Of a stretch of DNA of 64,000 nucleotides, positions 8,774 through 48,500 are shown piece by piece. Numbering within the stretch: position 1 is the stretch's first letter; the number at the start of each line of letters is the position of its first letter. The position numbers were made by a program, and so were the translations under genes. The stretch is from Eledone cirrhosa (Eukaryota), in contig OZ024744.1 in assembly GCA_964016885.1 (NCBI GenBank), positions 68,820,001 through 68,884,000 on the forward strand. The letters are read 5' to 3'. Below the pieces are notes generated by a model. That model did no database searches. It was not told the origin of the DNA and saw only the letters and a list, made by a program, of their open reading frames with translations.

Positions 8774-8894
8774 ATATATATATATATATATCTGTGTGTG
8801 TGTGTGTGTGTGTATATATACATATTTGTTATGTGTATATTTATATATGTGTATATGTGTTTGTATATGTGTATATATGTGTGTGTATATGTAT

Positions 8895-23736: not shown

Positions 23737-24993
<1,257 letters not shown>

Positions 24994-25002
24994 TTATTAT
25001 TA

Positions 25003-25313
25003 TTGAAAGATGGGTGACAGAAGCAAGTATGGCCCGAATGAATGGGCATTCTCTGAGTATGTGTCTGTAAATTAAAGGTGGAAAACTGGGAGAGGGCACT
25101 TGCCCTGGTGGTCAGGGCCACTGTGGTCTTTTAATGGGCTTTCTCCACAAATGTCCCTCGGAAGTCTCCCCCCTATTGGGGAATTTTTCTTTGTTATTTT
25201 ATTTCATCCTCTGTTTTTTTTACACGCAGAAATGCCCATTTGTACCGTCCTGTATTGTCCTGTACTGTCCTTAATGTCTACTTTATGTAAACACTTGTGG
25301 TTAATAAAGAAAA

Positions 25314-25314: not shown

Positions 25315-25344
<30 letters not shown>

Positions 25345-25559
25345 GAATGCCATGGTTGACGGAGGCTCGGCTCTGTAAGGTATAGTAATTTTTAACCGTT
25401 AAAACAATTGTAAATTGTTTAAAACTTGAACCAAATTGTTGATAAAGACACCCTCCTCCTCGTGAGAGGGGTCTTTCTGTCCGTTATTTGGCCCTTCGGG
25501 GTTAAATAACCAGTTATTGGGGTTTTGTACCCAAAATTTCATTTTAAACAAAAAACAAC

Positions 25560-27656
25560 ATGGCTACGAAAAAGAAATTTCATACGTCACTCCCACTCAT
25601 TCCGTCTTCTTCTTCCTCAATCATCACTACAGCAGAGAGAAGATTGTCTCTCTCCCTCCCTTCTTTAAATGTGTCTCTCTCCCTCCCTTCTCTTTCGCAA
25701 GTGACGAAAGAAAAGAAAAGTCTCGTGCAAAGCGTGCAAGGTTTCTCCACGACGACGACGACAGCGACGAAACAGGTGTGCGGGAAATACGAAAACCCAG
25801 TTCATTCGTCTGACGTCAGGAATAATAGCAGTAGCAGCCGTAATAACAACTGCAACAGTGACAATGAAAACAACAGTAGCAGCCGCAACAGCATCACCAG
25901 CAGCATAAACAACAACAGCATTAGCAGCAGCAACACCAACAACAACCACAGCAACAGCGGCGGAGGCAGTAGTCGTAGTACCTGCAGCAACAACAAAAGT
26001 ACCAGCAGCTCTGACGACAACAACAACAGCAGAGAAAAACCAATCTCATTTGCAGGTATTGCGAAAAACTTGGAAACAATCCTCATAACAAATGAGGAAT
26101 TAGAGGAAGCGAAGAAGATGGTGACAAAGACCGGACACCGAGCAATCTGCAAGGCAGCGGAAAAATTTTTCAAAACCCAAGAGCACTGTACGGTCACGTA
26201 CCGTACAGTAAGTACAAAATCCCGTAGGGTGGAAAGAGCCACAGAGGCCCAAATACAAAAAGCCTTGGGGTCTGTGTGGCAGCGGAAAACGCACATCACC
26301 CGAGGCAAAAAATATGCCACCGTAGACGTACTTTTTGCCACACCCCAGGAGGCAAAGGCCCAATCAGTAGTGACCCTAAGGAGCGAGGAAATGGTGTTGG
26401 TGCCCTCCTACTGTGGGCAAAAAATTGTGAGGGTCAAACTGACCCACGTCCCCCCCGGAATGACCCCTTCTTGGCTGGCCGCGTCTGTCCTCGTCGGAAT
26501 CGAGGACAAAACAACTGTACTGCAAGTACAGAAAAAAGTAAGAGAAGATTGGGTCGGCTCCTCCATTGAGATGCTAATCCAAACCAACCAGGAGTGCATC
26601 GAAGCTATCCCGGATGTGATAGACTTCGATAACGGCACTCAACTGCCCATAAGTGTTGAGGGCAAACGCCCGAAATGCTTTCGCTGTGGATCGAAGACTC
26701 ACCTCAGGGCCTTCTGCAACGAGAAGACCCTGAGAAAGGAGAAAACCCCCCTCCTTCCGAATCCGGCTCCACGGCTACCAGCAACAGGACAAGCGGCAAC
26801 CAGGAACGATAGGCCCGTGGCACCCATACCCACTCCACGGAAATCAAAAACAGCAGCAGCAGTGGAAATACTAACAACAACAACAGCAATACCAAATGCA
26901 GCTGCAACAGAGACTCCAGTGCAAACATCACCAACAACAACAAGTGAAAGAGTGGAGTTGGTACCCCTCCCCGACCTCACAGAATCAGACATGGAGTGTG
27001 AGGTGGGAGAGAGATGGCAAAAGGTCGTAAGAAGGCACAAACGCAGAAGCAGCGCATCGTCGCCTTTGAAAAGGGAGGAAAGAAATGAGAAAAGGGTAAA
27101 GTCTACTGCAAAGAGACCCACAGCAGCAACACCACCAACACCATCACCACCCACACTAGCGCCACCATCACCACCGGCGACAACCCCACCGCCAACAACA
27201 CCTTCAACACCACCACCACAAGCACCAACATCGCAAACACAACAACAAAACACACACACCCAGCAACAACGACAAGAAAATAGCAGAACCACACCCCACC
27301 CCCAGAAAAACAAATGCACGGCAATAAATACACACAACAAGAAACTAATGACTTACATAATTGAACACACAGACATTTCACAACAGGACTACATAATACC
27401 AGCACCAATCAAAACGCCAACTAACATAAGACTGCTAAAAATAGCACAGAAACAATACACAAATATTAAAACGAAATTCCCCAACGCAGTTGGTGATTTC
27501 AGGGACCTAGGAGGAACCATCAATCGAAGAGTATACTCAGACATTCTCTTAGAAGAGCCGACGACCAGGCGAAGGGACGATTCAACGGTCCCTTCACCAG
27601 ACGATCAAGTGAAAAGGGATGTAAAAACCATCCCTCCTCTACCAAAAGTACGGTAA
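25560..27656 (+). CDS. Tx1 ORF1 nucleic-acid-binding protein (698 aa)
   Basis: CCHC knuckle CFRCGSKTHLRAFC; low-complexity S/N N-terminus and P/T C-terminus; directly precedes ORF2. Confidence 0.88.
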   Translation: MATKKKFHTSLPLIPSSSSSIITTAERRLSLSLPSLNVSLSLPSLSQVTKEKKSLVQSVQGFSTTTTTATKQVCGKYENPVHSSDVRNNSSSSRNNNCNSDNENNSSSRNSITSSINNNSISSSNTNNNHSNSGGGSSRSTCSNNKSTSSSDDNNNSREKPISFAGIAKNLETILITNEELEEAKKMVTKTGHRAICKAAEKFFKTQEHCTVTYRTVSTKSRRVERATEAQIQKALGSVWQRKTHITRGKKYATVDVLFATPQEAKAQSVVTLRSEEMVLVPSYCGQKIVRVKLTHVPPGMTPSWLAASVLVGIEDKTTVLQVQKKVREDWVGSSIEMLIQTNQECIEAIPDVIDFDNGTQLPISVEGKRPKCFRCGSKTHLRAFCNEKTLRKEKTPLLPNPAPRLPATGQAATRNDRPVAPIPTPRKSKTAAAVEILTTTTAIPNAAATETPVQTSPTTTSERVELVPLPDLTESDMECEVGERWQKVVRRHKRRSSASSPLKREERNEKRVKSTAKRPTAATPPTPSPPTLAPPSPPATTPPPTTPSTPPPQAPTSQTQQQNTHTQQQRQENSRTTPHPQKNKCTAINTHNKKLMTYIIEHTDISQQDYIIPAPIKTPTNIRLLKIAQKQYTNIKTKFPNAVGDFRDLGGTINRRVYSDILLEEPTTRRRDDSTVPSPDDQVKRDVKTIPPLPKVR

Positions 27657-27691
27657 GTGGTCTTTCCCATCTTTTCCACTCTATTTTAAAC

Positions 27692-30600
27692 ATGACCTCA
27701 CTCAGAATAGGCAGCATAAATGCGCGTGGCTTGGGATCGTCATGGAAGCAGGGTCACCTGCTCAACGACCTCAGGTCACTAAACATAGATGTAGTGGCCA
27801 TCAGCGAGACCAGAATCTCCGAAGCACGGGCCTTCGCACCGATCTTCGGCGGCTACGATGTGTACGCATCTCCCAGCCGTCCTGGATCCGGTGGAGGAGT
27901 TGCTGTACTTTTTCGGAGAGGTTTGGATCTCGCCATACGGGCCATCTTCCTGGACCCAGAGGGTAAGCTGGTGGTGCTGGACGTGACCAGCGGAGACGGG
28001 CAAGCTTTCAGGCTAGTGGCCGTCTATGCCCCGACAGGAGCAGGGCGGCCTGATTTCTTCCGGCGTCTGGAGACCTTTCTTGGAACGTCGCGCTCTTTAG
28101 TGTTAGTGGGCGACTGGAACGGGATCTTAGATGCACGCTGGGACTGTGTGGGATTAGCGGATAGGGGTGGAGGGTGCAAGAGCCTCACCAACCTGCTCAG
28201 GCGTTTTGAACTGTCTGACAGGTACCGATTGGATTTCCCGAATGTGCCAATGTGGACTTGGACAAACCGCATAGGGTCATCCAGATCATATCTAGATAGA
28301 GTATTTTGTAGGGAAATAGATAGGTCTAGCATAGGCTGTCCACAATTCAAGATAGTCAGCTACACGGACCACAAATTCGTGATCTGTGTGCTTGACTTAG
28401 ATAGGCTTCATAGACGAGGACCCGGCTACTGGAAGCTAAACGCGTCCTTACCAGCGCGCAAGGCCTACAGAGACCGGATTAGCGAACTAGTTAAGCGGGC
28501 GTTGACGGGGGCCATCGTCAACAACAAGTGGTGGTTTGCTCTGAAAAGAGCGATTAGAATAGAATCGATTAGATTTAGTAAGGCTTTAGCAATAGAGAAA
28601 AATAGAGCAGAGGGAGAACTAGTTAGAAAATTAGACGAGGCGCTTAGCAAAGGCATTGCGACCGACGTGCTTGCGGCGAAATTGGCCCTTGACCAATTCT
28701 TCAATGCAAAGCACGAAGGCTGCGTTGTCAGAGCAAGGGTGCGTGCTCTCAGACACGAGGGGACGAAAGCCGTTCAATGGGCCCGAGTGGCGGAGGCGCG
28801 TCGTGGCAACAAAGCCACGATCCGGTCTTTGGTGGACCACGACGGGCGCATGCTACTCGATCCCGGGCAAATGTGTGAAGCTTTTCAGCGACACTTCGCT
28901 CAGCTGTTCGGGGGCAGCGGTGGGCCGGGTAGAGGGATGGACTTTAGTGTCTACCTCGACGGACTGCCGCGGCTCTCGGCCACTGAGGCGAAGTGTTGCG
29001 AAAAGCCGATAACAGCCGCTGAAGTAAGGGAGGCAATGACTGGCTGCACAAGGGGTAAATCGCCTGGTTTGGATGGTCTGCCCTATGAACTTTACGTACA
29101 GATGCCAGACTTGTTCGGAGGCCTCTTGGCGGACGTCTACTGCAACTGGCAACAGAACGGGAGAATTCCCAGTTCTGTGAGCCGAGGAGCGGTGGCACTG
29201 CTGAGAAAGGATCCGAACAAGGGGGATAAGATAGAAAATTTCCGGCCCATAACTCTGCTAAACACAGAGTTTAAGATTTTGGCCAAGGTGCTAGCAAAGA
29301 GGTTGGCGCTTGTCGTTGGTGGTCTGGTGGGAGAGGCGCAGACATGCGCCATTCCCGACAGATCCATCCACGACAACCTCCACCTCATGCGATACATCGT
29401 AGAGAGGGTAGCTAGGGAACCTGGCACGGGTGGGTCCTTGATCAATTTAGATCAGTCGAAAGCTTTCGATAGGGTCGACCATCGTTACCTAGCGGCAGTC
29501 CTGAGGGCGGCTGGCTTTGGGCCCGTCTTCAGAGGCTGGATCGCTGCCATGCACAGCGACATCTGCTCTGTGGTGAGAGTGAACGGTCACCTGTCGGAAC
29601 CGTTCAACATCATGCGCTCGGTCCGCCAAGGATGTCCCCTCTCGTCCCTCTTGTACGTATTGACTCTCGAGCCATTACTGCACAAACTGGAGACGTTGAG
29701 GGGGGTCCCGCGCGAACTAGGATGCGGAAGATCCGTATCAGCATATGCGGACGATGTCACCGTAGTGGTGTCGAACGCCAAACACATCGAGGCGATCGGC
29801 ACTACACTAAGAGAATACGAAGCGGTGACAGGAGCAATGATCAACCAGGAAAAGTCAGTGGGCCTGCAGCTCGGCACCTGGAGAGGCAGGTCCATGCCGT
29901 CCAACAGCGTCGTCGGACGCTGGACGGACGGACCGGTTAAATTGCTAGGGGTCTGGTTCGGTCCGGACCTCCAGACGGACAAAAACTGGGACGAGGTGAC
30001 GAGCAGGGTGGCTTCTCTCACCCAGAAATGGGCCGAGAGGAAGCTATCCCTGAAAGGTCGAGCGGAGGTGGCTAACGCGTACATCGCGTCCGTCATCTGC
30101 TACCGCCTGACCGTCGTACCTTGTCCTAAGCCTCGCCTGACTGTGCTGGAGCGGTTGCTCTTTCGCTTTTTGTGGAAGGGACGCGCTCCGATGGTCAGGC
30201 GGTCCATCTGTTGTCAACACCCGCTACGTGGAGGGCTGGGCATGCCGTGGCTGATGATGCGCAGGCACGCGCTCAGGCTACGACATCTCCACCTCTTCCT
30301 CGACGGTGATCAGGTGTGGTCGCCGTTTGCTAGACGCGTGTTTCCCCAGCTCGTTTCCTTGACGGAGCTGCAGTCCTGGGTCAAGCGAAGACCGAGAGGG
30401 AGCGCCTGGAGACTGGAATGTCTTCAGGCGCTCACAGCCCTCGACCAATCGGGCAATGTGATCGGTGGAAACTCCACCTCGGCGTTCTATAGAGGATTAG
30501 TGGAGGGGAAGAGCGACGACGTACTTGGGGAAACTCTAGGCGTCGACGAAAATCAACTAGCCAATCTCTTCGGAAGAACTTTCGGGCCAGGGCCTATGGA

Positions 30601-31111
30601 CAACTTCCAGAAATCTCTGGCCTGGCAGTGCTACCGAGGAGCCTTGCCAGTTCGGGATAAACTCTACAGGCATGGAGGTGCCGTCAGCCGGGCATGTCCG
30701 AGATGCGCGCAGGGCGACGAAACCGTCCTGCACGCACTCGTCCAGTGTCCGAAAATTGCTGACTTGTGGGTTTATGTCGAACACCTGCTGTCGCGTTTAG
30801 GACGGATCCGGCTATCATCTGAGTCCATCGTGAGGATTGCCCCGCCCTCCTCCTTTAGCCGGGAAGGGCAGGCAGTTTTTATCTGCCTGGTGGCCATGGC
30901 GAAAGAGATAGTATGGTGGACACGTTTGAAAGGGCTGAAGACGAGCACTTACCTCTTCGGTGATGCTCTGATTGACTTTTTCAAATTTCATTTGAAAAGG
31001 AAAATCAGAGTAGAGAGGGAAGTGCTCTCTTCCCAGCATTTTGTTGAAAGATGGGTGAGAGAAGCAAGAATGGCCCGAGTGAATGGGCCTACTCTGAGCA
31101 TATATCTGTAA
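27692..31111 (+). CDS. Tx1 ORF2: APE endonuclease, reverse transcriptase, zf-RVT (1139 aa)
   Basis: SINARGL, ISETR, GDWN, YLDR, TDH (APE); KSPGLDG, FRPITLLN, KAFDRV, QGCPLS, YADD (RT); CPRC..ETVLHALVQC. Confidence 0.96.
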   Translation: MTSLRIGSINARGLGSSWKQGHLLNDLRSLNIDVVAISETRISEARAFAPIFGGYDVYASPSRPGSGGGVAVLFRRGLDLAIRAIFLDPEGKLVVLDVTSGDGQAFRLVAVYAPTGAGRPDFFRRLETFLGTSRSLVLVGDWNGILDARWDCVGLADRGGGCKSLTNLLRRFELSDRYRLDFPNVPMWTWTNRIGSSRSYLDRVFCREIDRSSIGCPQFKIVSYTDHKFVICVLDLDRLHRRGPGYWKLNASLPARKAYRDRISELVKRALTGAIVNNKWWFALKRAIRIESIRFSKALAIEKNRAEGELVRKLDEALSKGIATDVLAAKLALDQFFNAKHEGCVVRARVRALRHEGTKAVQWARVAEARRGNKATIRSLVDHDGRMLLDPGQMCEAFQRHFAQLFGGSGGPGRGMDFSVYLDGLPRLSATEAKCCEKPITAAEVREAMTGCTRGKSPGLDGLPYELYVQMPDLFGGLLADVYCNWQQNGRIPSSVSRGAVALLRKDPNKGDKIENFRPITLLNTEFKILAKVLAKRLALVVGGLVGEAQTCAIPDRSIHDNLHLMRYIVERVAREPGTGGSLINLDQSKAFDRVDHRYLAAVLRAAGFGPVFRGWIAAMHSDICSVVRVNGHLSEPFNIMRSVRQGCPLSSLLYVLTLEPLLHKLETLRGVPRELGCGRSVSAYADDVTVVVSNAKHIEAIGTTLREYEAVTGAMINQEKSVGLQLGTWRGRSMPSNSVVGRWTDGPVKLLGVWFGPDLQTDKNWDEVTSRVASLTQKWAERKLSLKGRAEVANAYIASVICYRLTVVPCPKPRLTVLERLLFRFLWKGRAPMVRRSICCQHPLRGGLGMPWLMMRRHALRLRHLHLFLDGDQVWSPFARRVFPQLVSLTELQSWVKRRPRGSAWRLECLQALTALDQSGNVIGGNSTSAFYRGLVEGKSDDVLGETLGVDENQLANLFGRTFGPGPMDNFQKSLAWQCYRGALPVRDKLYRHGGAVSRACPRCAQGDETVLHALVQCPKIADLWVYVEHLLSRLGRIRLSSESIVRIAPPSSFSREGQAVFICLVAMAKEIVWWTRLKGLKTSTYLFGDALIDFFKFHLKRKIRVEREVLSSQHFVERWVREARMARVNGPTLSIYL

Positions 31112-31359
31112 ATTAAAGGTGGAAAACTGGGAGAGGGCACTTGCCTTGGTGGTCAGGGTCATTGTGGCTTTTTACTGGGCTTTCTCCACAAATGTCCCTC
31201 CGAAGTCTCCCCCCTATTGGGGAATTTTTCATTGTTATTTTTTGTTACATCCTCTGTTTTTGTTTTTTACACGCAGAAATGCCCATTTGTACCGTCCTGC
31301 ATTGTCCTGCACTGTCCTTAATGTCTACTTTATGTAAACCCTTGTGGTTAATAAAGAAA

Positions 31360-31409
<50 letters not shown>

Positions 31410-31410
<1 letters not shown>

Positions 31411-34400
31411 TTTGAGTCTCAGTCATTGATGTTGGTTAACTGGAAAGTTTGTTGAAATGAATATCAAGCCACTACCTGCAGCCTCAGATATTCAGAACGT
31501 ATCGGAGGGTTCTTGCTGTTCCCAGCAAGCATGCCTTTTGAAGCGTTCCATAAAGCGGGGTGGGGTCAATTTTCTTTAACCATCCCTGAAAACTCTTTGA
31601 GATAGTACCTAGTGCGCCTATGACAATCGGGACGACTTTGACATCATGGCAGTTCCAAATCCTTTTTACCACCCACTTTAAGTCCTGGTATCGGTTAATT
31701 TTCTCCCTCTCCTTCTCTTGCACTCTCGTGTCGAATGGGCAGGCCACATCTACAATCAGACACGATCTTTTTTCTTTGTCCACAACCACCAGGTCAGGTC
31801 TATTGTGTTCCAGTTTCTTGTCCCTCTGTATCCTAAGATCCCACAGCACCTTCACCTGATCGTTCTCCATCACCGCCTCTGGCTTATGCTCATACCACTT
31901 CTCAGAATGTGGTAAATTGTTTACTTTGCATAGGTGCCAGTGGATCACCCTGCCCATCACATCATGTCTCCAGCCCTTATAGTGAGTCTGGGCTAGTTGT
32001 TTACACTCGGATACAATGTGATCCACAGTCTCCTCTCTCTCTCCACAGATCCTGCACAGTGGGCGAGCCTCCTCCTTGTAAATATGATGTTTCAACCACT
32101 TCGTTTTGAGGGCCTGCTCCTGCGCAGCCATTAACATTCCTTCTGTAGCCTTTTTAAGGTCTCCTCTTTTCAACCAGTTCCATGTCTGTGGATCTCTAAA
32201 TTCAGTTTTCTCAAAGAAGGTACTATGAAGGGATTTTTCCTGAAGGCTGCTCTTTCTCCTTGATGTTATTTCCTCCTTGGACATCCCCTGGCCTATTGTC
32301 CCCTCCATCAGTACAGTTCTGAGCATTGGCTCCTTACTATCAGTCACGTATTTGTGTAGGTTGTTTTTCTCCATCTGAACACAGTCCTCTATGCTGATAA
32401 GACCTCTTCCACCTTCAGATCTCCTTAAGTAGAGTCTATCGACATCACTCCTCTTGTGGAACATGTTGTAGATAGTCAATAGCTTGCTAGTCTTCCTATC
32501 CATTTATTTTTGTTCAGCAACATTCCATCTCAGAATTCCCGCACTGTACCTAATAATAGACACAACCCGGGAATTTACTGCACTTATGGCATTCCTACTG
32601 TTCAGATGTGACTTTAATACGCTCCTTATTCTCCGAATGTATTCAGTTCTTATCAATTCCTTCATTTTTTTGTTCTTGATGTCATCAGCCTCCAGAACAC
32701 CCAATTACTTGTATCCTTCTTCAGAGTCAATTTCCTTTATCATCTCACCTGTTGGTACCTGGATTCCGTTACTTCTGCTCAATTTACCCCTCTTCATCAC
32801 AATGACTCCACACTTTCTAATACCAAATTGCATACATATATCATTGCTGAAAATACAGACAGTGTCAACAAGCACATCCAACTCCTTCTCACTCTTCCCG
32901 AAGAGCTTAAGATCGTCCATGAAGAAAAGGTGATTGATGGTAAGCCCTCCCTTTCCCAACCTGTATCCTGCTCTCACTTTTCGCAGTACACTGGTCAGGG
33001 GCATCAGGGCAAGGACAAACAACAGAGGGGACAGACTATCTCCCAGGAAGATACCTCTCTTGATCTTCACTCTTCCCAAGGATACTCCAGTTGATGTTAA
33101 CTCTGTTTCCCAGGACTTCATACTTTTGCCCAACAACTGTCTAATGTTATCTGCCACCTTGAAGATCTCCAGACTTTTGGTGATCCAAGAAAGAGGCACC
33201 ATGTCAAATGCCTTTTTGTAGTCTATCCATTCCATGGCAAGACCAGTGTGTCTGCTCTTGCAATTCCTCATTACCATCTTATCAATAAGTAACTGGTCCT
33301 TTGTACCACGTGACTTCTTTCGGCATCCTTTCTGTTCGTCCGGTAACAAGTTGTTTGTGTGGAGGTGATGGTAGATTTCCTCAGACATAATGCTTCTCAA
33401 CAGTTTCCACATTACGGACAGACATGTGATAGGTCTATAGTTGGTAACATCATTACCCTTGATTCGGTCTTTCGTTATCAGAACTGTGGTTCCTTTTGTC
33501 AACCACTCTGGTACCTCACCTGACATCAAGCAGTCATTGAACATGGTTGTCACTTTCGGGTGGAGGGATGTTATATTTTTAATCCAATACCCCTGCACAC
33601 CATCTGGGCCTGGTGATTTCCAGTTGGTTAGTTAGTTGGCCTGCCCCTTAAGAGTTTCAATGTGATACTCAAATCAGTTTGTTGATGTGCCTGTTCACTA
33701 ATCTCCTTCTGTACTGTCTCAATCCACACTGCCTGTTCATTATGTTTAACATCCTGCTCCCATATTCCTCTCCAGAATGTTTTAGTTTGTTCCGCCTCAG
33801 GGATCAAGTCGTTGCCTCTTTCTTTCCCTTTAAGCTGTCCAAACAGCATCTTCTGGTTGTTGTCGAACATGCGGTTCTGTCTATACTGACTGACTCTGTT
33901 CTTATATCGCCTGATTTTTGCACTCTTTACTACAATGCGTTGCTTCAGTTCCTCTATGATAATATTTAGTTTTTTCCTCCTAGTTTTGTACTTTATTTCC
34001 AGTCTATTTTTAGTGTCTATGTATTTTAGTGTCCCATTCAGTGGGGACTCAAGCTTTCCAATGTCATTTCTCATTTCCCTGATTTGACCATTCAGTCGTT
34101 TCTTCCACCAAGGTTCTGATCTTTCTTGTTTGTTGTTTCCTCTCGCTTTTATACCAAGTAATTTCCTCACCGCATTTGCTGTTGCTTTGAGGATATTGTT
34201 GGACTGGTGAAGGCTCAACGCCTCAAGGTATGGGATGAGTTTGTTTACCTTAGCTGTTGTTTCTTTTAACTTTTTCCTGTCTACAAATCTTAGATTCATA
34301 GGTTTCCCACTATCATTGTTCAATTCATCTACCACTAAGTTTAGGATATCAACCAAATCTTGTTCTAGCCCGTCAGCGTTCATTTCCTCAATAGCCGTAT

Positions 34401-34506
34401 CTTTGTTCCAGGTATTATTTATTTCAGCATTCAGATCATTGTCTGCTTCGGGTGGTTCCTCCGTTCTCTCAACCTCTTCACCTTCATTTCCCACTGGCTC
34501 GTTTGC
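31410..34506 (-). mobile_element. 5'-truncated, disrupted Dong/R4 LINE, family A variant
   Basis: Fragments 33628-34494, 32705-33598, 32504-32704 and 31484-32503 are colinear with the 1130-aa ORF at 34731-38123, with stops and frameshifts; ends in (TAA)n. Confidence 0.93.
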
Positions 34507-34730
34507 CTAATTGTGTGTGCTGACTCACAAATACGTGCACTGCATAACCAAACAAGAGAAAACTAAGACATTTTAGTCTATAGAGTTGCTTGTATATTAT
34601 TATTATTGTTTGTAATTATTATTATTATTATTATTATTATTATTGTTATTGTTATTCCTTGAATCTCAGTCATTGATGTTGGTTAACTGGAAAGTCCGTT
34701 GGATTGAATATCAAGCCACTACCTGCAGCC

Positions 34731-37700
34731 TCAGATATTCAGGACGTATCGGAGGGTTCTTGCCGTTCCAAGCAAGCATGCCTTTTGAAGCGTTCCAAAA
34801 AGCGTGAAGGGGCCGATTTTCTTTAACCATCCCTGGAAACTTTGGGAGATAGTCCCCAGTGCGCCTATGACAATCGGGATCACTTTGACTTCATGGCAGT
34901 TCCAAATCCTTTTCACCTCCCACTTTAGGTCCTGGTATCGGTCAATTTTCTCCCTCTCCTTCTCTTGCACTCTCGTGTCGAACGGACAGGCCACATCCAC
35001 AATCAGGCACGATCTTTTTTCTTTGTCCACAACCACCAGGTCAGGTCTATTGTGTTCCAGTTTTTTGTCCGTCTGTATCCTAAAATCCCACAGCACCTTC
35101 ACCTGACTGTTCTCCATCACCGCCTCTGGCCTATGCTCATACCATTTCTCAGAATGTGGTAGATTGTTTACTTTGCACAGGTGCCAGTGGATCACCCTGC
35201 CCATCACATCGTGTCTCCAGCCCTTATAGTGGGTCTGGGCTAGGTGTTTACACTCGGACACAATGTGAGCCACAGTCTCCTCTCTCTCTCCACAGATCCT
35301 GCACAGTGGGCTAGCCTCCTCCTTGTAGATATGGTGCTTCAACCACTTCGTTTTGAGGGCCTGCTCCTGCGCAGCCATTAGCATTCCTTCTGTAGCCTTT
35401 TTGAGGTCTCCTCTTCTCAACCAGTTCCATGTCTGTGGATCTCTAAATTCAGTTTTCTCAAAGAAGGTACTATGAAGGGATTTTCCCTTAAGGCTGCTCT
35501 TCCTCCTTGATGTTATTTCCTCCTTGGATATCCCCTGGCCTACTGTCCCCTCCTTCAGTACAGCTCTGAGCATTGGCTCCTTACTATAGGTCACGTATTT
35601 GTATAGGTTGTTTTTCTCCATCTGAACACAGTCCTCTATGCTGATAAGACCTCTTCCACCCTCAGATCTCCTTAGGTAGAGTCTATCGACATCACTCCTC
35701 TTGTGGAACATGTTGTAGATAGTCAATAGCTTCCTAGTCTTCCTATCCATTTCTTTTTGTTCAGCAACATTCCATCTCAGAATTCCCGCACTGTACCTAA
35801 TAATAGACACAGCTCGGGAATTTACTGCGCTTATGGCATTTCTGCTGTTCAGATGTGACTTCAATACGCTCCTTACTCTCCGAATGTATTCAGTTCTTAA
35901 CAATTCCTTCATTTTTTGGTTCTTTATGCCATCAGCCTCCAGAACGCCCAAATACTTGTATCCTTCCTCAGAGTCAATTTCCTTTATCATCTCACCTGTT
36001 GGTATCTGGATCCCGTTACTTCTGCTCAACCTACCCCTCCTCATCACAATGACTCCACATTTACCAATACCAAACTGCATACATATATCACTGCTGAAAA
36101 TACGGACAGTGTCAACAAGCACATCCAACTCCTTCTCACTTTTCCCGAAGAGCTTAAGATCGTCCATGAAGAGGAGGTGATTGATGGTAAGCTCTCCCCT
36201 TCCCAACTTGTATCCTGCTCTCACTTTTCGCAGCATAATGGTCAAGGGCATCAGGGCAAGGACAAACAACAGAGGGGACAGGCTATCTCCCTGGAAGATA
36301 CCTCTCTTGATCTTCACGCTTCCCAAGGATACTCCAGTTGATGTCAACTCTGTCTCCCAGGACCCCATACTCCTGCCCAGCAACTGTCTGATGTTATCTG
36401 CCACCCTGAAGATCTCCAGGCTTTTGGTGATCCAGGAATGAGGCACCATGTCAAATGCCTTTCTGTAGTCTATCCATCCCATGGCAAGATCAGTGTGTCT
36501 CCTCCTGCAATTCCCCATTACCATCTTATCAATAAGCAACTGGTCCTTTGTACCACGTGACTTCTTTCGGCATCCTTTCTGTTCGTCCGGCAACAAGTTG
36601 TTTGTGTGGAGGTGATGGTAGATTTCCTCAGACACAATGCTCGTCAACAGTTTCCACATTACGGGCAGACATGTGATAGGTCTATAGTTGGTAACATCAT
36701 TACCCTTGATTCGGTCTTTCATTATCAGAACTGTGGTACCTTTTGTCAACCACTCTGGCACCTCACCCGACACCAAGCAGTCATTGAACATGGCCGTCAG
36801 CTTCGGGTGGAGGGATGTTAAATGTTTAATCCAATACCCCTGCACACCATCTGGGCCTGGTGATTTCCAGTTGGTTAGTTTTTTGGCTTGCCCCTTAAGA
36901 GTTTCAACTGTGATACTCAAATCAGTCTGTTGCTGTGCCTGCTCACCGATCTCCCTCTGTACTGTCTCAATCCACCCTGCCTGGGCATTGTGTCTAACAT
37001 CCTGCTCCCATATTCCTCTCCAGAATGTTTTAGCTTGTTCCGCCCCAGGGATCAAGTCGTTGCCTCTTTCTTTCCCCTCAAGCTGTCCAAACAGCATCTT
37101 CTGGTTGTTGTCGAACATGCGGTTCTGTTTATACTGACTGACTCTGTTCTCGTATCGCCTGATTTTGGCACTCTTTGCTACAATGCGTTGCTTCAATTCC
37201 TCTATGATAATATTTAGCTTTTTACTCCTAGTTTTGTATTTTATTTCCAGTCTATTTTTAGTGCCTATGTTTTTTAGTGTCCCATTCAGTAGTGACTCAA
37301 GCTTTCCTATGTCATTTCTCATTTCCCCGATTTGCCCACTCAGTCGCTTCTTCCACCACGGCTCTGCTCTTTCTTGTCTGTTGTTTCCTCTCGCTTTTAT
37401 ACCAAGTAGTTTCCTCACCGTATTTGCTGTTGCTTTGAGGATATTGTTGCACTGGTGAAGACTCCTCGCCTCAAGGTATGGGATGACTTTGTTTACCTTA
37501 GCTGTTGTTTCTTTTAACTTTTTCCTGTCTACAAATCTTAGGTTCATAGGTTTCCCACTATCATTGTTCAACTCATCTACCACTAAATTTAGGATGTCAA
37601 CCGAATCTTGTCCTAGCCCGTCAGCATTCATCTCCTCAGTGGCCGTATCTCTGTTCCAGGTATTATTTATCTCAGTATTCAGATCATTGTCTGCTTCGGG

Positions 37701-38123
37701 TGGTTCCTCCGTTCTCAGGACCTCCTCACCTTCATTTCCCGCCGGCTCGCTTGTCTGGCATACTACACCCGCCATCTCCAAGCCATTCTCTCTGCTCAGT
37801 TCCTCCAGTTCCAGCTCGCTTATCCACCCATTAGTTCTTATTACCCGAGCCTGCCCGGCCAATTTTTGTTCATCTAATTTAAATAAACCAATCTCGTTCC
37901 AGATGTTATGCATCCGTCTCCTGTAGCCCCTCTCCTTGGGGTTACTTTTCAGGTAGCATTGCATAACAGTTCTATTCAATTCTTTCGTCCAGTTGGTTCT
38001 GGCCCCTTTCCTTCTTCTTCTTCCTCCAACATCAGCAGTATTTGGTTGACAGTCAGGTTCCTGCTGCTGAGCCAGGGGGCACCTGTTGGGTGAGAGTCTG
38101 TCACATGACGTTCTAGTCTCCAT
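34731..38123 (-). CDS. Dong/R4 ORF: RT, CCHC and restriction-like endonuclease (1130 aa)
   Basis: KSPGPDG, NYRPITCL, DYRKAFD, GIFQGDSLSP, LFMDDLK; CRIC..ETVAHIVSEC; RHD; RPDLVV..DVACP..EREK. Confidence 0.96.
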   Translation of the reverse strand: METRTSCDRLSPNRCPLAQQQEPDCQPNTADVGGRRRRKGARTNWTKELNRTVMQCYLKSNPKERGYRRRMHNIWNEIGLFKLDEQKLAGQARVIRTNGWISELELEELSRENGLEMAGVVCQTSEPAGNEGEEVLRTEEPPEADNDLNTEINNTWNRDTATEEMNADGLGQDSVDILNLVVDELNNDSGKPMNLRFVDRKKLKETTAKVNKVIPYLEARSLHQCNNILKATANTVRKLLGIKARGNNRQERAEPWWKKRLSGQIGEMRNDIGKLESLLNGTLKNIGTKNRLEIKYKTRSKKLNIIIEELKQRIVAKSAKIRRYENRVSQYKQNRMFDNNQKMLFGQLEGKERGNDLIPGAEQAKTFWRGIWEQDVRHNAQAGWIETVQREIGEQAQQQTDLSITVETLKGQAKKLTNWKSPGPDGVQGYWIKHLTSLHPKLTAMFNDCLVSGEVPEWLTKGTTVLIMKDRIKGNDVTNYRPITCLPVMWKLLTSIVSEEIYHHLHTNNLLPDEQKGCRKKSRGTKDQLLIDKMVMGNCRRRHTDLAMGWIDYRKAFDMVPHSWITKSLEIFRVADNIRQLLGRSMGSWETELTSTGVSLGSVKIKRGIFQGDSLSPLLFVLALMPLTIMLRKVRAGYKLGRGELTINHLLFMDDLKLFGKSEKELDVLVDTVRIFSSDICMQFGIGKCGVIVMRRGRLSRSNGIQIPTGEMIKEIDSEEGYKYLGVLEADGIKNQKMKELLRTEYIRRVRSVLKSHLNSRNAISAVNSRAVSIIRYSAGILRWNVAEQKEMDRKTRKLLTIYNMFHKRSDVDRLYLRRSEGGRGLISIEDCVQMEKNNLYKYVTYSKEPMLRAVLKEGTVGQGISKEEITSRRKSSLKGKSLHSTFFEKTEFRDPQTWNWLRRGDLKKATEGMLMAAQEQALKTKWLKHHIYKEEASPLCRICGEREETVAHIVSECKHLAQTHYKGWRHDVMGRVIHWHLCKVNNLPHSEKWYEHRPEAVMENSQVKVLWDFRIQTDKKLEHNRPDLVVVDKEKRSCLIVDVACPFDTRVQEKEREKIDRYQDLKWEVKRIWNCHEVKVIPIVIGALGTISQSFQGWLKKIGPFTLFGTLQKACLLGTARTLRYVLNI

Positions 38124-39810: not shown

Positions 39811-41806
39811 ATGGCTAATTCACCTCTGCACCAAACAGCTGAAAGCCTTCCTCACAAATTAACACCTCACACCGACACCACCATTGTAAATGTTACTACG
39901 TTTGCCAACACAAATAAATAAATATAAGCAGTAGCAATATTTTAAATTTGTCTCAGGCAGACATTCATTTCCCGCCATTACCAATGACTGCAGGTGTTAA
40001 ACCCTCCACCACCACCACCACCGCGACAACCACCACCCCCACCACCACCGCGACAACAGAAACAAAAGAAAAAAATAAATTAACTCGTGATGTCGAAATG
40101 AAATCAAACAAAATGTACTCTTCCCCACCAAAGACGACTGACGTCACCACCACCACAACTGAAACTAAAATTAATATTAACACAAATAACGATAGCAACA
40201 ACAACAACAACAATGACATTATAAAACCGACCCTCAGTTTCGCCAGAGTAGCAAAACAGTTCGAAGCATTTACGGTAATTCAGGAGGATTTAGAAAATGC
40301 CAAACAAATGGTAAAGAAAGATGGGTACAGGGTCAGCCCCCCCCCCACCTAATAAAATGGAGCATCGGCGCCTATGCACCGTGTCGTATAGAACAATAAA
40401 TGTAAAATCGCGCCGAGTGGAACGGGCATCCGAGTCCCAAATCCAAAAAGCTTTGGGACATGTGTGGGCAAGAAAAACCCACATCAGACGTGGACAAAAG
40501 TATGGAACCGTGGATATGTTCTTTGAAACACCAGAGGAGGCTAGAGAACACTCTATGGCCCCATTAAAAAGTGATGACTTCACTCTCGTCCCAAGCTATT
40601 GTGGCCAGAGACTCGTAAAGATCAGGGTGACCCACGTTCCACCGGCCATCGAAATTCCCTGGCTAATAGCGGCCGTCCTCGCCGGCATCGAAGCCAACAC
40701 GAAAATAATAGCAATAGCAAAAGAAAAGCAGGAGAACTGGTCCGGATCTGGGATGGAGCTCCTGATCCAAGCGGACCAAAAAAGCATTGAGGAGATCCCA
40801 GAGGTAATAGACCTCAGTGACGGCAGCCACCTCACCGTAACTGTCGAGGGCAGAAGACCTAGGTGTCTCGTTTGTGGTGAAGGAACCCACCTAAGGGCTT
40901 TCTGCCCTCAGGCTAAAAGGTTGAGGCCACCTCTCCTACCCACCCTAGTGACACAACCATCAACACCACCAGTAGCAGAGATGGCAGCAACAACTGTAGC
41001 AGCAACAACAGAAGCAACTATAACAGCAACAACCCCAGCAACAGTAGCAAAACCAACACCACCACCACCACCAGCAAAACCAACACCACCACCACCCAAC
41101 GCTTCAGAACTAGCACCAGCGCCTACACCATCCACCACGCCACAACCAAAACTAACGGCTGTGGAGGATTTTCCACTCCCCGTCCTATCACAACCGGAGA
41201 CAGATTGTGACGACGAGGAGTGGGAAACGATATCCGGAAAAAAAAAAGAAACCAAAAAAGAAAAAAAATTCTCTTCCTTCCCCCTCCAAAAACAAAATAC
41301 AGAGGGAAACAAATAAATTAAGAAACAAAAAAGTTAGGACAGATATGCCACCATCCACACCAGCATCACCAACTCCATCAACCCAAACACCAACACCATC
41401 ACCATCATTAACCCCAACACCACCATCACCTACACCACAAAAGTCACCAAAATGCGAAACAGAAACAAACCCACAACAAACGCAAACAAAACAAAACAAC
41501 CAAAACGATACACACTACACAGCATTAAATTTGAACAACAAGCAATTATTACACTACATCCAACACAACACCAGCATCACAGATAAAGACTACACAACAA
41601 CCCCAAAATTCACACCACCTCCACACATACAAATCACTCGCATCACACAGAAAACGTACATGAAACTGAAACAAAAATTCCCCAAAGACATCGGAGACTT
41701 CCGACAAGCACTCTCCAGGAGGATTTATAAGGACATCCTTCCTGAGGAGGCCACAAGCAGTGAAAAGGATGGAAAAACCGTCCTTCCCCTACGAGAAGTA
41801 AGGTAA
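39811..41806 (+). pseudogene. Tx1 copy 2 ORF1, frameshifted
   Basis: Pieces 39811-39921, 39948-40352, 40321-41316 and 41207-41806; knuckle CLVCGEGTHLRAFC; homologous to ORF1 of copy 1. Confidence 0.85.
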
Positions 41807-41840
41807 GTGGTCTTTCCCATCTTTTCCACTCCTTTTCAAC

Positions 41841-44800
41841 ATGACCTCACTCAGAATAGGCAGCATAAATGCGCGTGGCTTGGGGTCGTCATGGAAGCAG
41901 GGCCACCTGCTCAACGATCTCAGGTCACTAAACATAGATGTAGAGACCAGAATCTCCGAAGCACAGGCTTTCGCACCGATCTTCGGCGGCTACGATGTGT
42001 ACGCATCTCACAGCTGTCCGGGATCGGGGGGGAGGAGTTGCTGTGCTTTTTCGGAGAGGTTTGGATCTTGCCATACGGGCCATCTTCCTGGACCCAGAAG
42101 GTAAGTTGGTGGTGCTGGACGTGACCAGCGGAGACGGCCAAGCTTTCAGATTAGTGGCCGTCTATGCCCCGACAGGAGCAAGGCGGCCTGATTTCTTCCG
42201 GCGTCTGGAGACCTTTCTTGGAACGTCCCGCTCTTTAGTGTTAGTGGGCGACTGGAACGGGATCTTAGATGCACGCTGGGATTGTGTGGGATTAGTGGAT
42301 AGGGAAGGAGGGTGCAAGAGCCTCACCAACCTGCTCAGACGTTTTGAACTGTCTGACAGGTACCGAATGGATTTCCCGAATGTACCAATGTGGACTTGGA
42401 CAAATCGCATAGGGTCATCCAGATCATATCTAGATAGAGTATTTTGTAGGGAAATAGATAGGTCTAGCATAGGCTGTCCACAATTCAAGATAGTCAGCTA
42501 CACGGACGACAAATTCGTGATCTGTGTGCTTGACTTAGATAGGCTTCATAGACGAGGACCCGGCTACTGGAAGCTAAACGCGTCCTTACCAGCGCGCAAG
42601 GCCTACAGAGACCGGATTAGCGAACTAGTTAAGCGGGCGTTGACGGGGGACATCGTCAACAACAAGTGGTGGTTTGATCTGAAAAGAGCAATTAGAATAG
42701 AGTCCATTAGGTTTAGTAAGACTTTAGCAATAGAGAAAAATAGAGCAGAGGGAGAATTAGTTAGAAAATTAGATGAGGCGCTTAGCAAAGGCATCGCGAC
42801 CGACGTACTTGCGGCGAAATTGGCCCTTGACCAATTCTTCAATGCAAAGCACGAAGGCTGCGTTGTCAGAGCTAGGGTGCGTGCTCTCAGACACGAGGGG
42901 ACGAAAGCCGTTCAATGGGCCCGAGTGGCGGAGGCGCGTCGTGGCAACAAAGCCACGATCCGGTCTTTGGTGGACCACGACGGGCGCATGCTACTCGATC
43001 CCGGGCAAATGTGTGAAGCTTTTCAGCGACACTTCGCTCAACTGTTCGGGGGCAGTGGCGGGCCGGATCGAGGGATGGACTTTAGTGTCTACCTCGACGG
43101 ACTACCGCGGCTTTCGGCCACTGAGGCGGAGTGTTGCGAAAAGCCGATAACAACCGCTGAAGTACGGGATTCAATGACTAGTTGCACAAGGGGTAAATCG
43201 CCTGGTTTAGATGGTCTGCCCTATGAACTTTACGTACAAATGCCAAACTTGTTCGGATGCCTCTTGGCGGACGTCTACTGCAACTGGCAACAGAACGGGA
43301 GAATTCCCAGCTCTATGAGCCGAGGAGCGGTGGCGCTGCTGAGAAAGGATCCGAACAAGGGGGATAACATAGATAATTTTAGGCCCATAACTCTGCTAAA
43401 CACAGAGTTCAAGATTTTGGCCAAGGTGCTAGCAAAGAGGTTGGCGCTTGTCGTTGGTGGTCTGGTGGGAGAGGCACAGACATGCGCCATTCCCGACAGA
43501 TCCATTCACGACAACCTCCACCTCATGCGATACATCGTAGAGAGGGTAGCTAGGGAACCTGGCACGGGTGGGTCTTTGATCAATTTAGATCAGTCGAAAG
43601 CCTTCGATAGGGTCGACCATCGTTACCTAGCGGCAGTCCTGAGGGCGGCTGGCTTTGGGCCCGTCTTCAGAGGCTGGATCGCTGCCATGCACAGCGACAT
43701 CTGCTCTGTAGTGAGAGTGAACGGTCACCTTTCGGAACCGTTCAACATCATGCGCTCGGTCCGCCAAGGATGTCCCCTCTCGTCCCTATTGTACGTATTG
43801 ACTCTCGAGCCATTACTGCACAAACTGGAGACGTTGAGGGGGGTCCCGCGCGAACTAGGATGCGGAAGATCCGTGTCAGCATATGCCGACGATGTCACCG
43901 TAGTGGTGTCGAACGCCAAACACATCGAGGCGATCGGCACTACACTAAGAGAATACGAAGCGGTGACAGGAGCAATGATCAACCAGGAAAAGTCAGTGGG
44001 CCTGCAGCTCGGCACCTGGAGAGGCAGGTCCATGCCGTCCAACAGCGTCGTCGGGCGCTGGACGGACGGACCGGTTAAATTGCTAGGGGTCTGGTTCGGT
44101 CCAGACCTCCAGACGGACAAAAACTGGGACGAGGTGACGAGCAGGGTGGCTTATCTCACCCAGAAATGGGCCGAGAGGAAGCTATCCCTGAAAGGTCGAG
44201 CGGAGGTGGCGAATGCGTACATCGCATCCGTCATCTATTACCGCCTGACCGTCGTACCTTGTCCTAAGCCCCGCCTGACTGCGCTGGAGCGTTTGCTCTT
44301 TCGCTTCTTGTGGAAGGGACGCGCTCCGATGGTCAGGCGGTCCATCTGCTGTCAACACCCGCTACGTGGAGGGCTGGGCATGCCGTGGCTGATGATGCGC
44401 AGACACGCGCTCAGGCTACGACATCTCCACCTCTTCCTCGACGGTGATCAGGTGTGGTCGCCGTTTGCAAGACGCGTTTTTCCCCAGCTCGTCTCCTTGA
44501 CGGAGCTGCAGTCCTGGGTCAAGCGAAGACCGAGAGGGAGCGCTTGGAGACTGGAATGTCTTCAGGCGCTCACAGCCCTCGACCAATCGGGCAATGTGAT
44601 CGGTGGAAACTCCACCTTGGCGTTCTATAGGGGATTAGTGGAGGGGAAGAGCGACGACGTACTTGGAGAAACTCTAGGCGTCGACGAAAATCAACTAGCC
44701 AATCTCTTCGGAAGGACTTTCGGGCTGGTGCCTATGGACAAGTTCCAGAAATCCCTGGCCTGGCAGTGCTACCGAGGAGCTTTGCCAGTTCGGGATAAAC

Positions 44801-45248
44801 TCTACAGGCATGGAGGTGCCGTCAGCCGGGCATGTCCGAGATGCGCGCAGGGCGACGAAACCGTCCTGCACGCACTCGTCCAGTGTCCGAGCATTGCTGA
44901 CTTGTGGGTTTATGTCGAACACCTGCTGTCACGTGTAGGACGGATCCAGCTATCAGCTGAGTCCATCGTGAGGATTGCCCCGCCCCCTTCCTTTAGCCTG
45001 GAAGGGCAGGCAGTTTTTATCTGTCTGGTGGCCATGGCGAAAGAGATAGTATGGTGGACACGTTTGAAAGGGCTGAAGACGAGCACTTACCTCTTCGGTG
45101 ATGCCCTGATTAACTTTTTCAAATTTCATTTGAAAAGGAAAATCAGGGTAGAGGGGGAAGTGCTCTCTTCCCAGCATTTTGTTGAAAGATGGGTGAGAGA
45201 AGCAAGTATGGCCCGAATGAATGGGCCTCTCTGAGTATGTATCTGTAA
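41841..45248 (+). pseudogene. Tx1 copy 2 ORF2 (APE-RT) with an early deletion and frameshift, and a frameshift near the C-terminus
   Basis: MTSLRIGSINARGL start, loss of VAIS, frameshift at ~42010-42030; 41995-45234 stays open for 1079 aa. Confidence 0.9.
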
Positions 45249-45491
45249 ATTAAAGGTGGAAAACTGGGAGAGGGCACTTACCCTGGTGGTCAGGGCCACT
45301 GTGGTCTTTTAATGGGCTTTCTCCACAAATGTCCCATGGAAGTCTCCCCCCTATTGGGGAATTTTTCTTTGTTATTTCATTTCAACTTCTGTTTTTTTTA
45401 CACGCAGAAATGCCCATTTGTACCGTCCTGTATTGTCCTGTACTGTCCTTAATGTCTACTTTATGTGAACCCTTGTGGTTAATAAAGAAAA

Positions 45492-45529: not shown

Positions 45530-48500
45530 CAGTTGCATTTATCTTTCTTTATGTTCATACGAGTTGTCACCAAGTCACAACTAGTGACCTCAAGAGACAA
45601 CAAGGTCCGCCATGTTCAAGAAAGAACATACATACTCACCCATGCATCTTTAGTGTTTAGACTTGTGATGTACTTATATTGACAGAATCTTCCTTAGTAT
45701 ATGGGCAGTTCCCATTAGTACTATCTTTTGTATTTCTCCTATACGCGGGTTTCCTGGGATTTGCGATAAGTAATCATTAGACCCCTTCGGTATCATTCCC
45801 AGAGCGCCTACAACCACTGGTTTTGTTTTAGTTCTCAATTTCCACATTTTTCCAATTTCTATCTCCAGGTCCTTATACTTGCTCAATTTTTCAAATGTTT
45901 TTATAGATACATTCTTGTCTATTGGAACAGACATATCAATTAGCAGGCATACCCTCTTTTTGAAGTCCTTCAATATTATATCAGGTCCATTTGCATCTAT
46001 TTTTCGGTCTGTTTGGATGCTAAAGTTCCACAAGATTGAGATGTGATCTTTTTCAAGTATGGGAGGTGGTTTATGCTCCCACCAATTCTTTTGATGGGGC
46101 AGGTCAATATGCTTACGCATTATCCAATGTATGTATTGTGCAGCTCTGTCATGCCTGTTTAGGTATTCGGTTGGAGCTATAGGACTGCACATTGAAATTA
46201 TATGGTCAATGGTCTCTGGTTGTTTTTTGCATACACGGCATAATGGGCTGCATCCATTTTTTATTATGTTCGCTTTGTAATTTTTTGTTGGCAGGCACAG
46301 ATCTTGTGCTGATATAATCAGTCCTTCAGTCTCCGATTTCAGTCCAGAGGATGCCAACCACTGATGGGTTAAAGTTTTGTCAACATCAGGATTGTTAGAT
46401 CGCTCTGGGTATTTTCCATACAGAGGCTTTTCTTGCCATTTCTTAGCCAGGTTCTGTAGCAGTTCTTTCTTTACCTACTTTGCTTTTTCTGTGTTTTCCA
46501 TTCCAGCAGTAAATGGGACTTCTGAAATTTGTAGTCCATTACTGTATCTTTGTGCATCTTTTGTAATGGAATATGATCTTTTGATGCTTTCGTGTTTCAA
46601 AACGAGTCTGATCATCCAATCATGTGATTCCCTTAGATATGTAGATAATCCAATTGTTGCAGTTTTCAACGCAATGTCTAACTGGATTAACCCACGTCCT
46701 CCTTCTTTCCTAGGGAGATATATTCTATCTATATCTGCCTTAGGGTGATGCATTCTGTGCATGGTTAAGAGTTTTCGAATTTTTGTATCGAGCCTACGGA
46801 TCTCTGTGCTTGACCAGTTGATGACATTGTAACTGTAGGTTACTACTGGTATGGCAAGCGTGTTTATGGCATCGATCCTATTCCTTGCATTCAATTCCGT
46901 TCTTAAGATTGCTCTTACTCTGCGGTAACATTCCTTCCTTATCCTTTCCCCCATTGTCGAGTGCTTGATTCCGTCTCCTTCACAAACACCTAGATATTTG
47001 TAAGTTTTTTCTTGATCAAGTTCTCTTATCACGTTCCCCCGATCAAGATTAATGTCTGAACTCTTCAGCAGCTTTCCTCTGGTGAACGTTGCTTTGGCGC
47101 ATTTGTCTAGTCCAAACTCCATTTTAATGTCATACTGAACTGCTCCACAGTGGATAATAGCCCTTGCAATTGTTCATCATTTTTTGCAAATAGTTTCAGG
47201 TCATCCATGTAGAACAAGTGATTAATGGTTTTGTCATAGACTTTATATCCATGTTTTGTTTCATTGAGCATTTTACTTAATGGTATAAGTGCAATGCAGA
47301 ATAAAAGCGGTGATAAAGAGTCACCTTGAAAAATTCCACAATTAATATTAACTTCTCCAGCTTCCAGTGATTTTGTTTCACTATTCAAAAGGAGTGTCGT
47401 TTTCCATGTCTTCATACTGAATGACAAAAACCTACTGACAACGGGGGATATTTTTAAAATCTCTAAACATTTTTCAATCCAACTGTGTGGCAAACTATCG
47501 AATGCTTTTTTATAATCTATCCAAGCAATCGATAGATTTTTGTGTCTATTATGACAATCTTCCAGTATCATTTTGTTAACCAGAAGCTGATCCTTACAGC
47601 CATATGAGCCTCGTTTACACCCTTTCTGCTCAATGGGAAATAGGTCATATGTTATCAGGTGGTCATATGTGTATTCAGTTAGGACTGATGTTAAAATTTT
47701 ATACATTGTGGTCAAGCAGGTTATCGGTCTGTAATTTTGGGGATTGTTTGTCTCATCATTCTTCGGAAGCAGGAATGTAATGCCGTTAACTAGCCATGAT
47801 GGTATCTTTTCTGGCTCCTTAACTATTTCATTGTAAAGTTGGGCTAACAGCTCATGAGACTCTGTGAAGGCATTTATCCAAAAGTTTTGTATTTTGTCTT
47901 TTCCTGGGGATTTCCATTTGCAGGTTTTTCTTAGAGCCAAGCGCAACTGTTCAACTGTTATATTTTCCCATATTTGTTCCTCAAGGTGAGCTGTATCTTT
48001 CATTTGTCTGTCTATCCATGGGGCATGTATGTTATGAACTTTTTCTTCGGCCCAGATCTTTTCCCAGAATTCTTGCACTTCTTCCTTGGGTGGTATTGAT
48101 TTAGCAGTTATTGTTGACTTACCAATTTTTCTGTAGAAGTTTCTTTGGTTGTTTTTGAACATATTATTGTCCTTATAGAATCTAGATCGTTTTTCAAAGC
48201 GCCTTATACGAGCAGCTTTGGCCGACACTTTTTGTTTGATTATTTCTATCAGCATGTCTATGTCACTTGTTGATTTTATACTGTACTTTTTTTTCAATTT
48301 TCTAAGTTTAGTTTGTTTAACATGTTCACCTACTTTATAGTTTGTTAAAATTTCTATGTCAGATCGGAGAAGGCTTATTTGGCGATTGATGTTCTCTTGC
48401 CAAGTAGATTTCTTGTGGGAATTCCTTTGTTTTTTCATCTTCACTCCACATAAGTGAGTGGTGACTTTAGCCGATGCATAATAGAGATGATTTAAATCAG

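Follow-up and report, generated by a model that had tools for sequence, protein, structure and literature searches.

In the tombusvirus carnation Italian ringspot virus (CIRV), a pairing over about 3.5 kb between the PRTE and DRTE elements controls readthrough into the RNA-dependent RNA polymerase, and it has been proposed to serve the culling of truncated genomes and cis-preference (PMC3234231). Coupling of the two open reading frames (ORFs) of the SART1 retrotransposon requires a structure downstream of an overlapping stop-restart, and mammalian L1 is described as reinitiating across a 63-nt spacer (PMC5972666). In Ty1 the CYC5/CYC3 pairing joins the genome ends and serves reverse transcription (PMC7969010). 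The Tx1 clade of long interspersed nuclear elements (LINEs), in which target preference is common, includes the microsatellite-targeting Kibi and Koshi (PMC4494074), and L1-Tx1 families have been reported in coleoids (PMC8967140, PMC13282606). Here we describe a two-ORF LINE of Eledone cirrhosa, found in a 64,000-nt stretch of assembly GCA_964016885.1 (contig OZ024744.1, forward-strand positions 68,820,001 to 68,884,000; hereafter the window, numbered from its first letter). In this element, copy 1 of a family that we call A, the junction between ORF1 and ORF2 is predicted to pair with the end of ORF2 and the start of the 3' untranslated region (UTR). Comparison of sister and distant lineages indicates that the predicted duplex is real, clade-wide and co-varying.

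The original prediction had placed an inverted repeat around ORF2, and both its arms and the helices named in it lie as claimed, including a helix within coding sequence with 11 of 12 pairs formed. For the arms 27652-27717 and 31083-31145 the predicted duplex energy is -56.3 kcal/mol, and for the arms of a second copy in the window, of subfamily A2, it is -56.2 kcal/mol. The duplex withstood the comparison with dinucleotide-shuffled controls, as none of 1000 shuffles was as stable (z -7.0 for copy 1 and -6.7 for copy 2). This arm-against-arm control ignores the search space; when shuffled arms were set against the entire 3.4 kb downstream, 0/307 were as good (z -4.3), and the 5' arm was the best among tiles of equal GC content. 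Two measures pull the other way: by raw duplex energy the 5' arm ranked only 20th of 82 tiles, and the gapped DNA alignment score of 31 lay within the range of best scores (24-43) of 30 shuffled whole elements. One copy alone is therefore only suggestive. The distal coding helix was rivalled by local folds and was missing from the whole-RNA fold of family A; the robust core of the predicted duplex comprises the spacer paired with the UTR just after the stop and the AUG paired with the last codon. Copy 2 keeps the pairing, as had been proposed, but its coding helix carries a 1-nt deletion and its ORF2 is broken. The change from G-U to A-U in copy 2, offered earlier as evidence for the pairing, proved to be private (1 of 15 A/A2 copies, 12 of the 15 keeping G).

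We gathered sister families by protein, DNA and motif searches of the same genome. Both arms were present on one natural copy in 11 lineages (A, A2, B, B2, C, D, E, F, G, I and I2), which were found via neighbouring fragments and loose read ends and not picked for pairing; the least decayed representative of each was chosen by eye. Family G is a single copy without the AUG, and family H was left out as 0/10 of its loci extended to the ORF2 start. Among the first nine families ORF2 is 69-96% identical at the DNA level, with spacers and 3' UTR starts far more diverged. Every one of the nine representatives beat its shuffles (z -3.0 to -8.0). In a swap test on these nine, own arms gave a mean of -68.0 kcal/mol versus -50.6 kcal/mol for swapped arms, which none of 200,000 permutations matched; with non-coding parts only, the values were -49.5 versus -36.6 kcal/mol, again with no permutation matching. 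That own arms pair better than swapped ones supports, across families, the long-range panhandle round ORF2 that had been proposed, which thus withstands the refuting conditions set for it on both energy and conservation. In a blind tile test over 3.4 kb the partner of the spacer tile was the ORF2-stop region in 7/8 families (family C misses), and the 25 other tiles agreed in at most 4/8. With the position fixed in advance, 0/200 shuffles of family B were as stable.

An alignment of the 11 lineages, built from sequence only and then folded with inter-arm pairs only, yielded 32 pairs with 89% of cells paired, 14 of the pairs showing two-sided change. Row permutations reached 89% paired cells in 0/2000 cases and 14 two-sided pairs in 4/2000. 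Over eight families G-U pairs outnumbered A-C pairs (50 vs 30), and in 8/9 families the sense strand was more stable than the antisense strand; together these two results favour selection on RNA over copying at the DNA level. The panhandle was present in whole-RNA minimum-energy folds of 3/4 families and in flank-context cofolds of 9/11 lineages. Two loci, L146 and L128, are apparent recombinants, their 3' arm being of E type and their 5' arm A2-like or D-like; the swap energy of A2 with E is -59.8 kcal/mol, about that of A2's own arms (-60.3 kcal/mol).

The register at the ORF2 start codon was identical in all eight representatives with an AUG: the final sense base is the partner of position -1, both the A and the G of the AUG are paired, and its U is bulged. 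In the families of this genome, position -2 of the AUG is paired to the first base of the ORF2 stop, and in B2 a C-G pair is replaced by U-A via a synonymous change. Whatever the spacer length, from a UAAUG overlap in lineage K (see below) to 48 nt in C, the AUG is covered by helix. Stop-to-AUG distances include spacers of 35, 34, 33, 32 and 14 nt as well as an overlap of 1 nt, so that all frames are covered. Because the frame between the ORFs varies, fixed readthrough, frameshift and splice fusion are ruled out, which would leave reinitiation. Programmed readthrough or frameshifting with a distal enhancer, which needs a fixed ORF1/ORF2 frame, was among the candidates rejected on this ground. 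Cyclization of the Ty1 type, with paired 5' and 3' termini, was rejected as well, the 5' arm lying 2.3 kb inside the element. A TURBS-like (termination upstream ribosome-binding site) UGGGA was not conserved across families, D and E having TGAGA.

Two distant lineages, J and K, with 41% protein identity, came from host-like contigs inside a metagenome-assembled genome (MAG), found by a metagenome scan with an alignment; a scan with a single protein as query gave no matches. The contigs L251-L295 of a MAG labelled Arenicella hold tandem LINE copies and look like eukaryotic host DNA within a bacterial MAG, and L292, from another MAG, also carries a LINE. In J, the best partner of the AUG tile was the ORF2 end in 8/8 copies tested, against 0/100 shuffles and 0/500 synonymous-randomised controls. 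In K, the stop of ORF1 and the start of ORF2 overlap in UAAUG, which is predicted to pair with the last 38 nt of ORF2 (synonymous-randomised controls, 1/500). The ORF2 stop is situated about 47 nt (J) and about 12 nt (K) beyond the AUG's partner. The claim that the AUG stands opposite the stop thus holds as a fixed register within the families of this genome and fails in J and K. What is conserved as the anchor is the AUG/junction region, not the stop, and since the stop is displaced in these two lineages, closed-loop recycling that runs from the stop back to the start is not what has been conserved. In every lineage the duplex takes in both the stop of ORF1 and the AUG of ORF2, and its 3' partner includes the last ORF2 codons. 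We also examined 93 distant loci, 29 of which had an intact ORF2 with flanks; 20 of the 29 were outgroups with 23-31% identity, and in 0/20 of these outgroup LINEs did the best partner fall within 90 nt of the stop. The carriers form one long-stemmed clade in a quick tree (Shimodaira-Hasegawa-like approximate likelihood ratio test, SH-aLRT, 100). Taken together, we have little doubt that the long-range duplex itself is under selection.

Several results count against the predicted panhandle and the reading of it that we favour below. Co-variation within A, A2, C, D and E alone was not significant (433 and 299 of 2000 permutations), nor was the count of two-sided changes in J (774/2000), and the families are related, so that these counts are not independent events. 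The whole-RNA minimum-energy fold of family B and the flank-context cofolds of F and I2 lacked the panhandle. Family C is weak (z -3.0, missed by the tile test, antisense strand more stable), I2 breaks the pair at -1, and K was missed by the blind 75-nt tile, tiles chosen afterwards giving 1, 0 and 4 of 60.

The duplex is accompanied by further predicted structure in ORF2. A hairpin of about 40 bp adjoining the 3' arm was predicted in all 13 lineages tested (z -1.8 to -7.8), with two-sided change in 10/33 pairs of its consensus; in the window it spans 30934-31037 and is a candidate for an ORF2p-binding or pause element. Coding segments at 29112-29950 and 30550-30670 of the window are also predicted to fold strongly (z about -4 to -7). 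Local folding across ORF2 was in excess in 7 lineages (mean z -1.5 to -2.4) as opposed to 5 outgroups (-0.6 to +0.1), and this predicted excess is a trait of the clade that is not seen in those five. A comparison with Rfam returned three matches, every one far below the gathering score.

The 5' arm also carries a motif resembling the consensus of 5' splice sites. It overlaps or abuts the ORF1 stop in 11/11 lineages of this genome and follows the stop directly in J, with a weak version at the ORF1 end of K. Its phase relative to ORF1 is 2 in A, A2, I, I2 and probably C and G, 1 in B, D, E and F, and 0 in B2 (2 copies), and a motif found in three phases is not explained by a coding constraint. 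All of it is paired in the representatives of A, A2, D and E, and in B, B2, C, F and G it is looped out in part or entirely. A second donor-like motif lies 14-40 nt past the ORF2 stop, in the 3' UTR, in J and K (L262 and L288); in J a run of pyrimidines and YAG come after it. A 53-nt intron joining ORF1 to ORF2 in frame, possible by sequence in family A, was rejected as a conserved mechanism as the donor phase varies. Spliced retrocopies with the ORF1 end joined to an acceptor were absent from the 60 loci inspected of 111 pattern matches (0/60); one of these, locus L301, carries a deletion whose start is not at the donor. ORF1-only retrocopies, with ORF2 as the whole intron, were found neither among these 60 loci nor among 15 inspected of 1156 joints, the latter from contigs of unspecified kind and hence without bearing on RNA splicing. 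Nor did we find an acceptor that is conserved: a good one lies at 31278 in family A, but in family B the U-rich tract is not followed by any AG.

In the reading to which we give about an even chance, the duplex would be an RNA clasp of about 50 bp that holds the ORF2 start shut and rations ORF2 protein, and does so only on full-length RNA, since the clasp could form only once the transcript reaches its 3' end. A ribosome terminating on ORF1 would melt merely the top of the duplex, allowing rare reinitiation at the ORF2 AUG, for which the duplex would have to be opened through chaperoning by ORF1p or through a ribosome finishing ORF2, whose last codons lie in the 3' arm in every lineage. The outcome would be many ORF1p and few ORF2p molecules per RNA, and the 3' UTR, kept beside the ORF2 start, would favour binding in cis. 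That the duplex forms in vivo, and that its effect is repression and not enhancement of the tombusvirus type, we infer, the latter from the stability of the helix. Two further points tell against the clasp: all structures are predictions and the present results do not separate repression from stimulation, and the donor-like motif in the 5' arm hints at a possible nuclear role.

Such a nuclear role could take the form of a completion switch, which we regard as unlikely. U1 small nuclear ribonucleoprotein (snRNP) bound to the donor-like motif during transcription would shield ORF2 from premature polyadenylation, and the last-made 3' arm would then cover the site, block splicing and license export of unspliced full-length RNA. 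The occurrence of the motif in all lineages of this genome and in a lineage as remote as J, its use of three ORF1 phases, variants that track the donor consensus, its complete pairing in A, A2, D and E and the second motif after the ORF2 stop in J and K all speak for this. The lineages in which the motif is looped out do not fit it, nor does the weak motif of K, and conservation of the AUG register exceeds that of the motif's pairing. Less probable still, in our estimate, is that translation is unaffected and the clasp serves the architecture of the ribonucleoprotein (RNP) or of reverse transcription, closing a compact, highly folded domain of ORF2 RNA; this domain would either offer the 3' UTR to ORF2p for target-primed reverse transcription or shield the RNA. 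The ORF2-wide folding excess of the clade and the conserved hairpin next to the 3' arm are in line with it, as is the role in reverse transcription described for the long-range Ty1 pairing (PMC7969010). It leaves unexplained, however, why the 5' partner is the ORF2 AUG region and not the 5' end of the RNA, and the 3' arm ends about 200 nt short of the 3' end of the element.

The opposite effect on translation, with the pairing stimulating the synthesis of ORF2, either because the ribosome that terminates ORF1 is made to pause or because ribosomes are handed back from the ORF2 stop to the AUG, seems to us improbable. The pairing of the first stop base at -2 of the AUG would suit a hand-back, K has a SART1-like UAAUG overlap with the helix immediately after it, and the tombusvirus pairing is itself described as an enhancer (PMC3234231). 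Set against these, the stop has shifted off the AUG's partner in J and K, and from general knowledge a duplex of -54 to -79 kcal/mol over the spacer should hinder scanning. A lack of any selected RNA function, with the complementarity due to composition, to an old inverted duplication or to DNA-level conversion between the arms, has largely been refuted already and we consider it very improbable. The arms are pyrimidine-rich and purine-rich, swapped arms still reach about -50 kcal/mol and a single copy is not significant, all of which speak for such a lack; yet independent decay predicts no advantage of own arms, which is seen, the G-U bias lies on the sense strand, and pairing through coding sequence exceeds what the amino acids demand. 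These readings are not all mutually exclusive. The clasp and the nuclear switch could be joined in a completion sensor, in which the last-made RNA would fold over both the U1-type site and the ORF2 start, and one switch would set how much ORF1 and ORF2 are made relative to each other, how the RNA escapes splicing, and cis-preference; we put this forward tentatively, as somewhat less probable than the clasp.

The features of the window that concern the element are collected in Table 1. ORF2 has Pfam domains PF03372, PF00078 and PF13966, and its closest PDB structure is human L1 ORF2p (E 3e-53, over residues 5-855). ORF1 matches CCHC/RRM-type clusters of a protein atlas at 0.91-0.93, which we take as a lead only. 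The element shows the characters of an APE-type two-ORF retrotransposon of the L1 group without long terminal repeats (LTRs): APE, reverse transcriptase (RT) and a C-terminal zinc motif in ORF2, a nucleic-acid-binding ORF1 with a CCHC knuckle, and an end formed by AATAAA and (ATT)n. By these features it is L1/Tx1-like; our tree took in unnamed relatives only, with no named Tx1 reference. The ends adjoin (ATT)n-type runs at 5 inspected loci and in both window copies, often head to tail, a target preference of the kind common in the Tx1 clade. Full-length copies also lie about 6 kb apart in head-to-tail arrays with (ATT)n between them (G000:C4:36681357-36699981 and other loci), which suggests insertion of the element into its own tail. 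Between copies 1 and 2, ORF2 is 95% identical in DNA and most of ORF1 is not shared; they align by DNA only from 41759 versus 27608 onward, about 45 nt upstream of the 5' arm, a boundary that may reflect either ORF1 exchange or fast ORF1 divergence. The host genome is 3.0 Gb and rich in microsatellites; a fragmentary match to an Octopus protein, together with the repeat content, pointed to a cephalopod. Within this genome the families are large and young, F having 3862 exact motif matches and I 1881.

Table 1 Features of the LINE copies in the window.
Feature	Position	Strand	Remarks
Full-length LINE, copy 1 (family A)	25345..31361	+	Bounded by (ATT)n runs at 25315-25344 and 31362-31409
ORF1, 698 aa	25560..27656	+	CX2CX4HX4C knuckle read in the sequence; residues 170-400 resemble CCHC/RRM-type clusters
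ORF2, 1139 aa	27692..31111	+	APE endonuclease, RT, zf-RVT
5' splice-site-like motif xG/GTAAGT	27650..27658	+	Overlaps the ORF1 stop
5' arm	27652..27717	+	Stop of ORF1, 35-nt spacer rich in pyrimidines, AUG of ORF2 with first codons; core at about 27652-27696
Predicted local hairpin, about 40 bp	30934..31037	+	Within the 3' end of ORF2
3' arm	31083..31152	+	Last ORF2 codons, stop at 31109-31111, purine-rich start of 3' UTR
AATAAA	31350..31355	+	Directly before the (ATT)n tail
Copy 2 (subfamily A2), 5' arm	41802..41866	+	ORF1 unlike that of copy 1; ORF2 broken
Copy 2, 3' arm	45221..45282	+	Coding helix with 1-nt deletion

Other repeats neighbour these copies. Single-ORF RT elements with a C-terminal PD..D-type motif, presumably Dong/R4-like, lie on the minus strand at 24051-25049, 31484-38123 and 45674-51293, interleaved with the LINE and using its (ATT)n runs, and the two lineages appear to have one target in common. 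Broken pol fragments of an LTR retrotransposon, which we take to be gypsy-like, occupy 3533-4533 (minus strand). Two long inverted repeats, at 4627-5977 (258 nt at 91%) and 8228-8791 (225 nt at 97%), are possibly non-autonomous DNA transposons.

If the completion sensor holds, it would be a structural mechanism by which a non-LTR retrotransposon controls ORF2, and a case of convergence with plant RNA viruses. It would touch on how LINEs keep ORF2 protein low on a bicistronic RNA and on the preference of this protein for its own full-length RNA. In this clade the cis element is defined and 13 lineages offer natural compensatory variants of it, and the clade suggests that LINE RNAs can carry a virus-like long-range architecture overlooked by domain-based annotation. 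A literature search for long-range pairing or panhandles in non-LTR elements found none among the papers listed, with most subscription papers, Repbase Reports and supplements outside its scope, so that absence from print is not established; the "panhandle" in the accessible text of PMC7827607 refers to viruses and inverted Alus. The principle is thus known from RNA viruses and Ty1, and we found no report of it in this class of element and architecture. Compared by features rather than by a tree, the LINE shares with the Tx1-clade elements its two ORFs, an APE-RT ORF2 and a simple-repeat preference, here for (ATT)n, but an RNA panhandle is not mentioned in the parts of their descriptions available to us (PMC4494074, PMC8967140, PMC13282606). 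With SART1 and L1 it shares a bicistronic non-LTR RNA, and with SART1 the UAAUG overlap of lineage K; the available portion of the review names no long-range partner for these elements (PMC5972666), whereas here the far end of ORF2 supplies the structure. Ty1 likewise has a long-range pairing inside a retrotransposon RNA, but it is an LTR element in which both ends are described as joined (PMC7969010), whereas the 5' partner of the LINE is internal, at the ORF1/ORF2 junction. The tombusvirus pairing is alike in joining the junction before the polymerase ORF to the 3' region over about 3.5 kb; as described, it serves readthrough in one frame in a virus (PMC3234231), whereas in this LINE the frames vary and a predicted helix of about 50 bp lies over the AUG itself.

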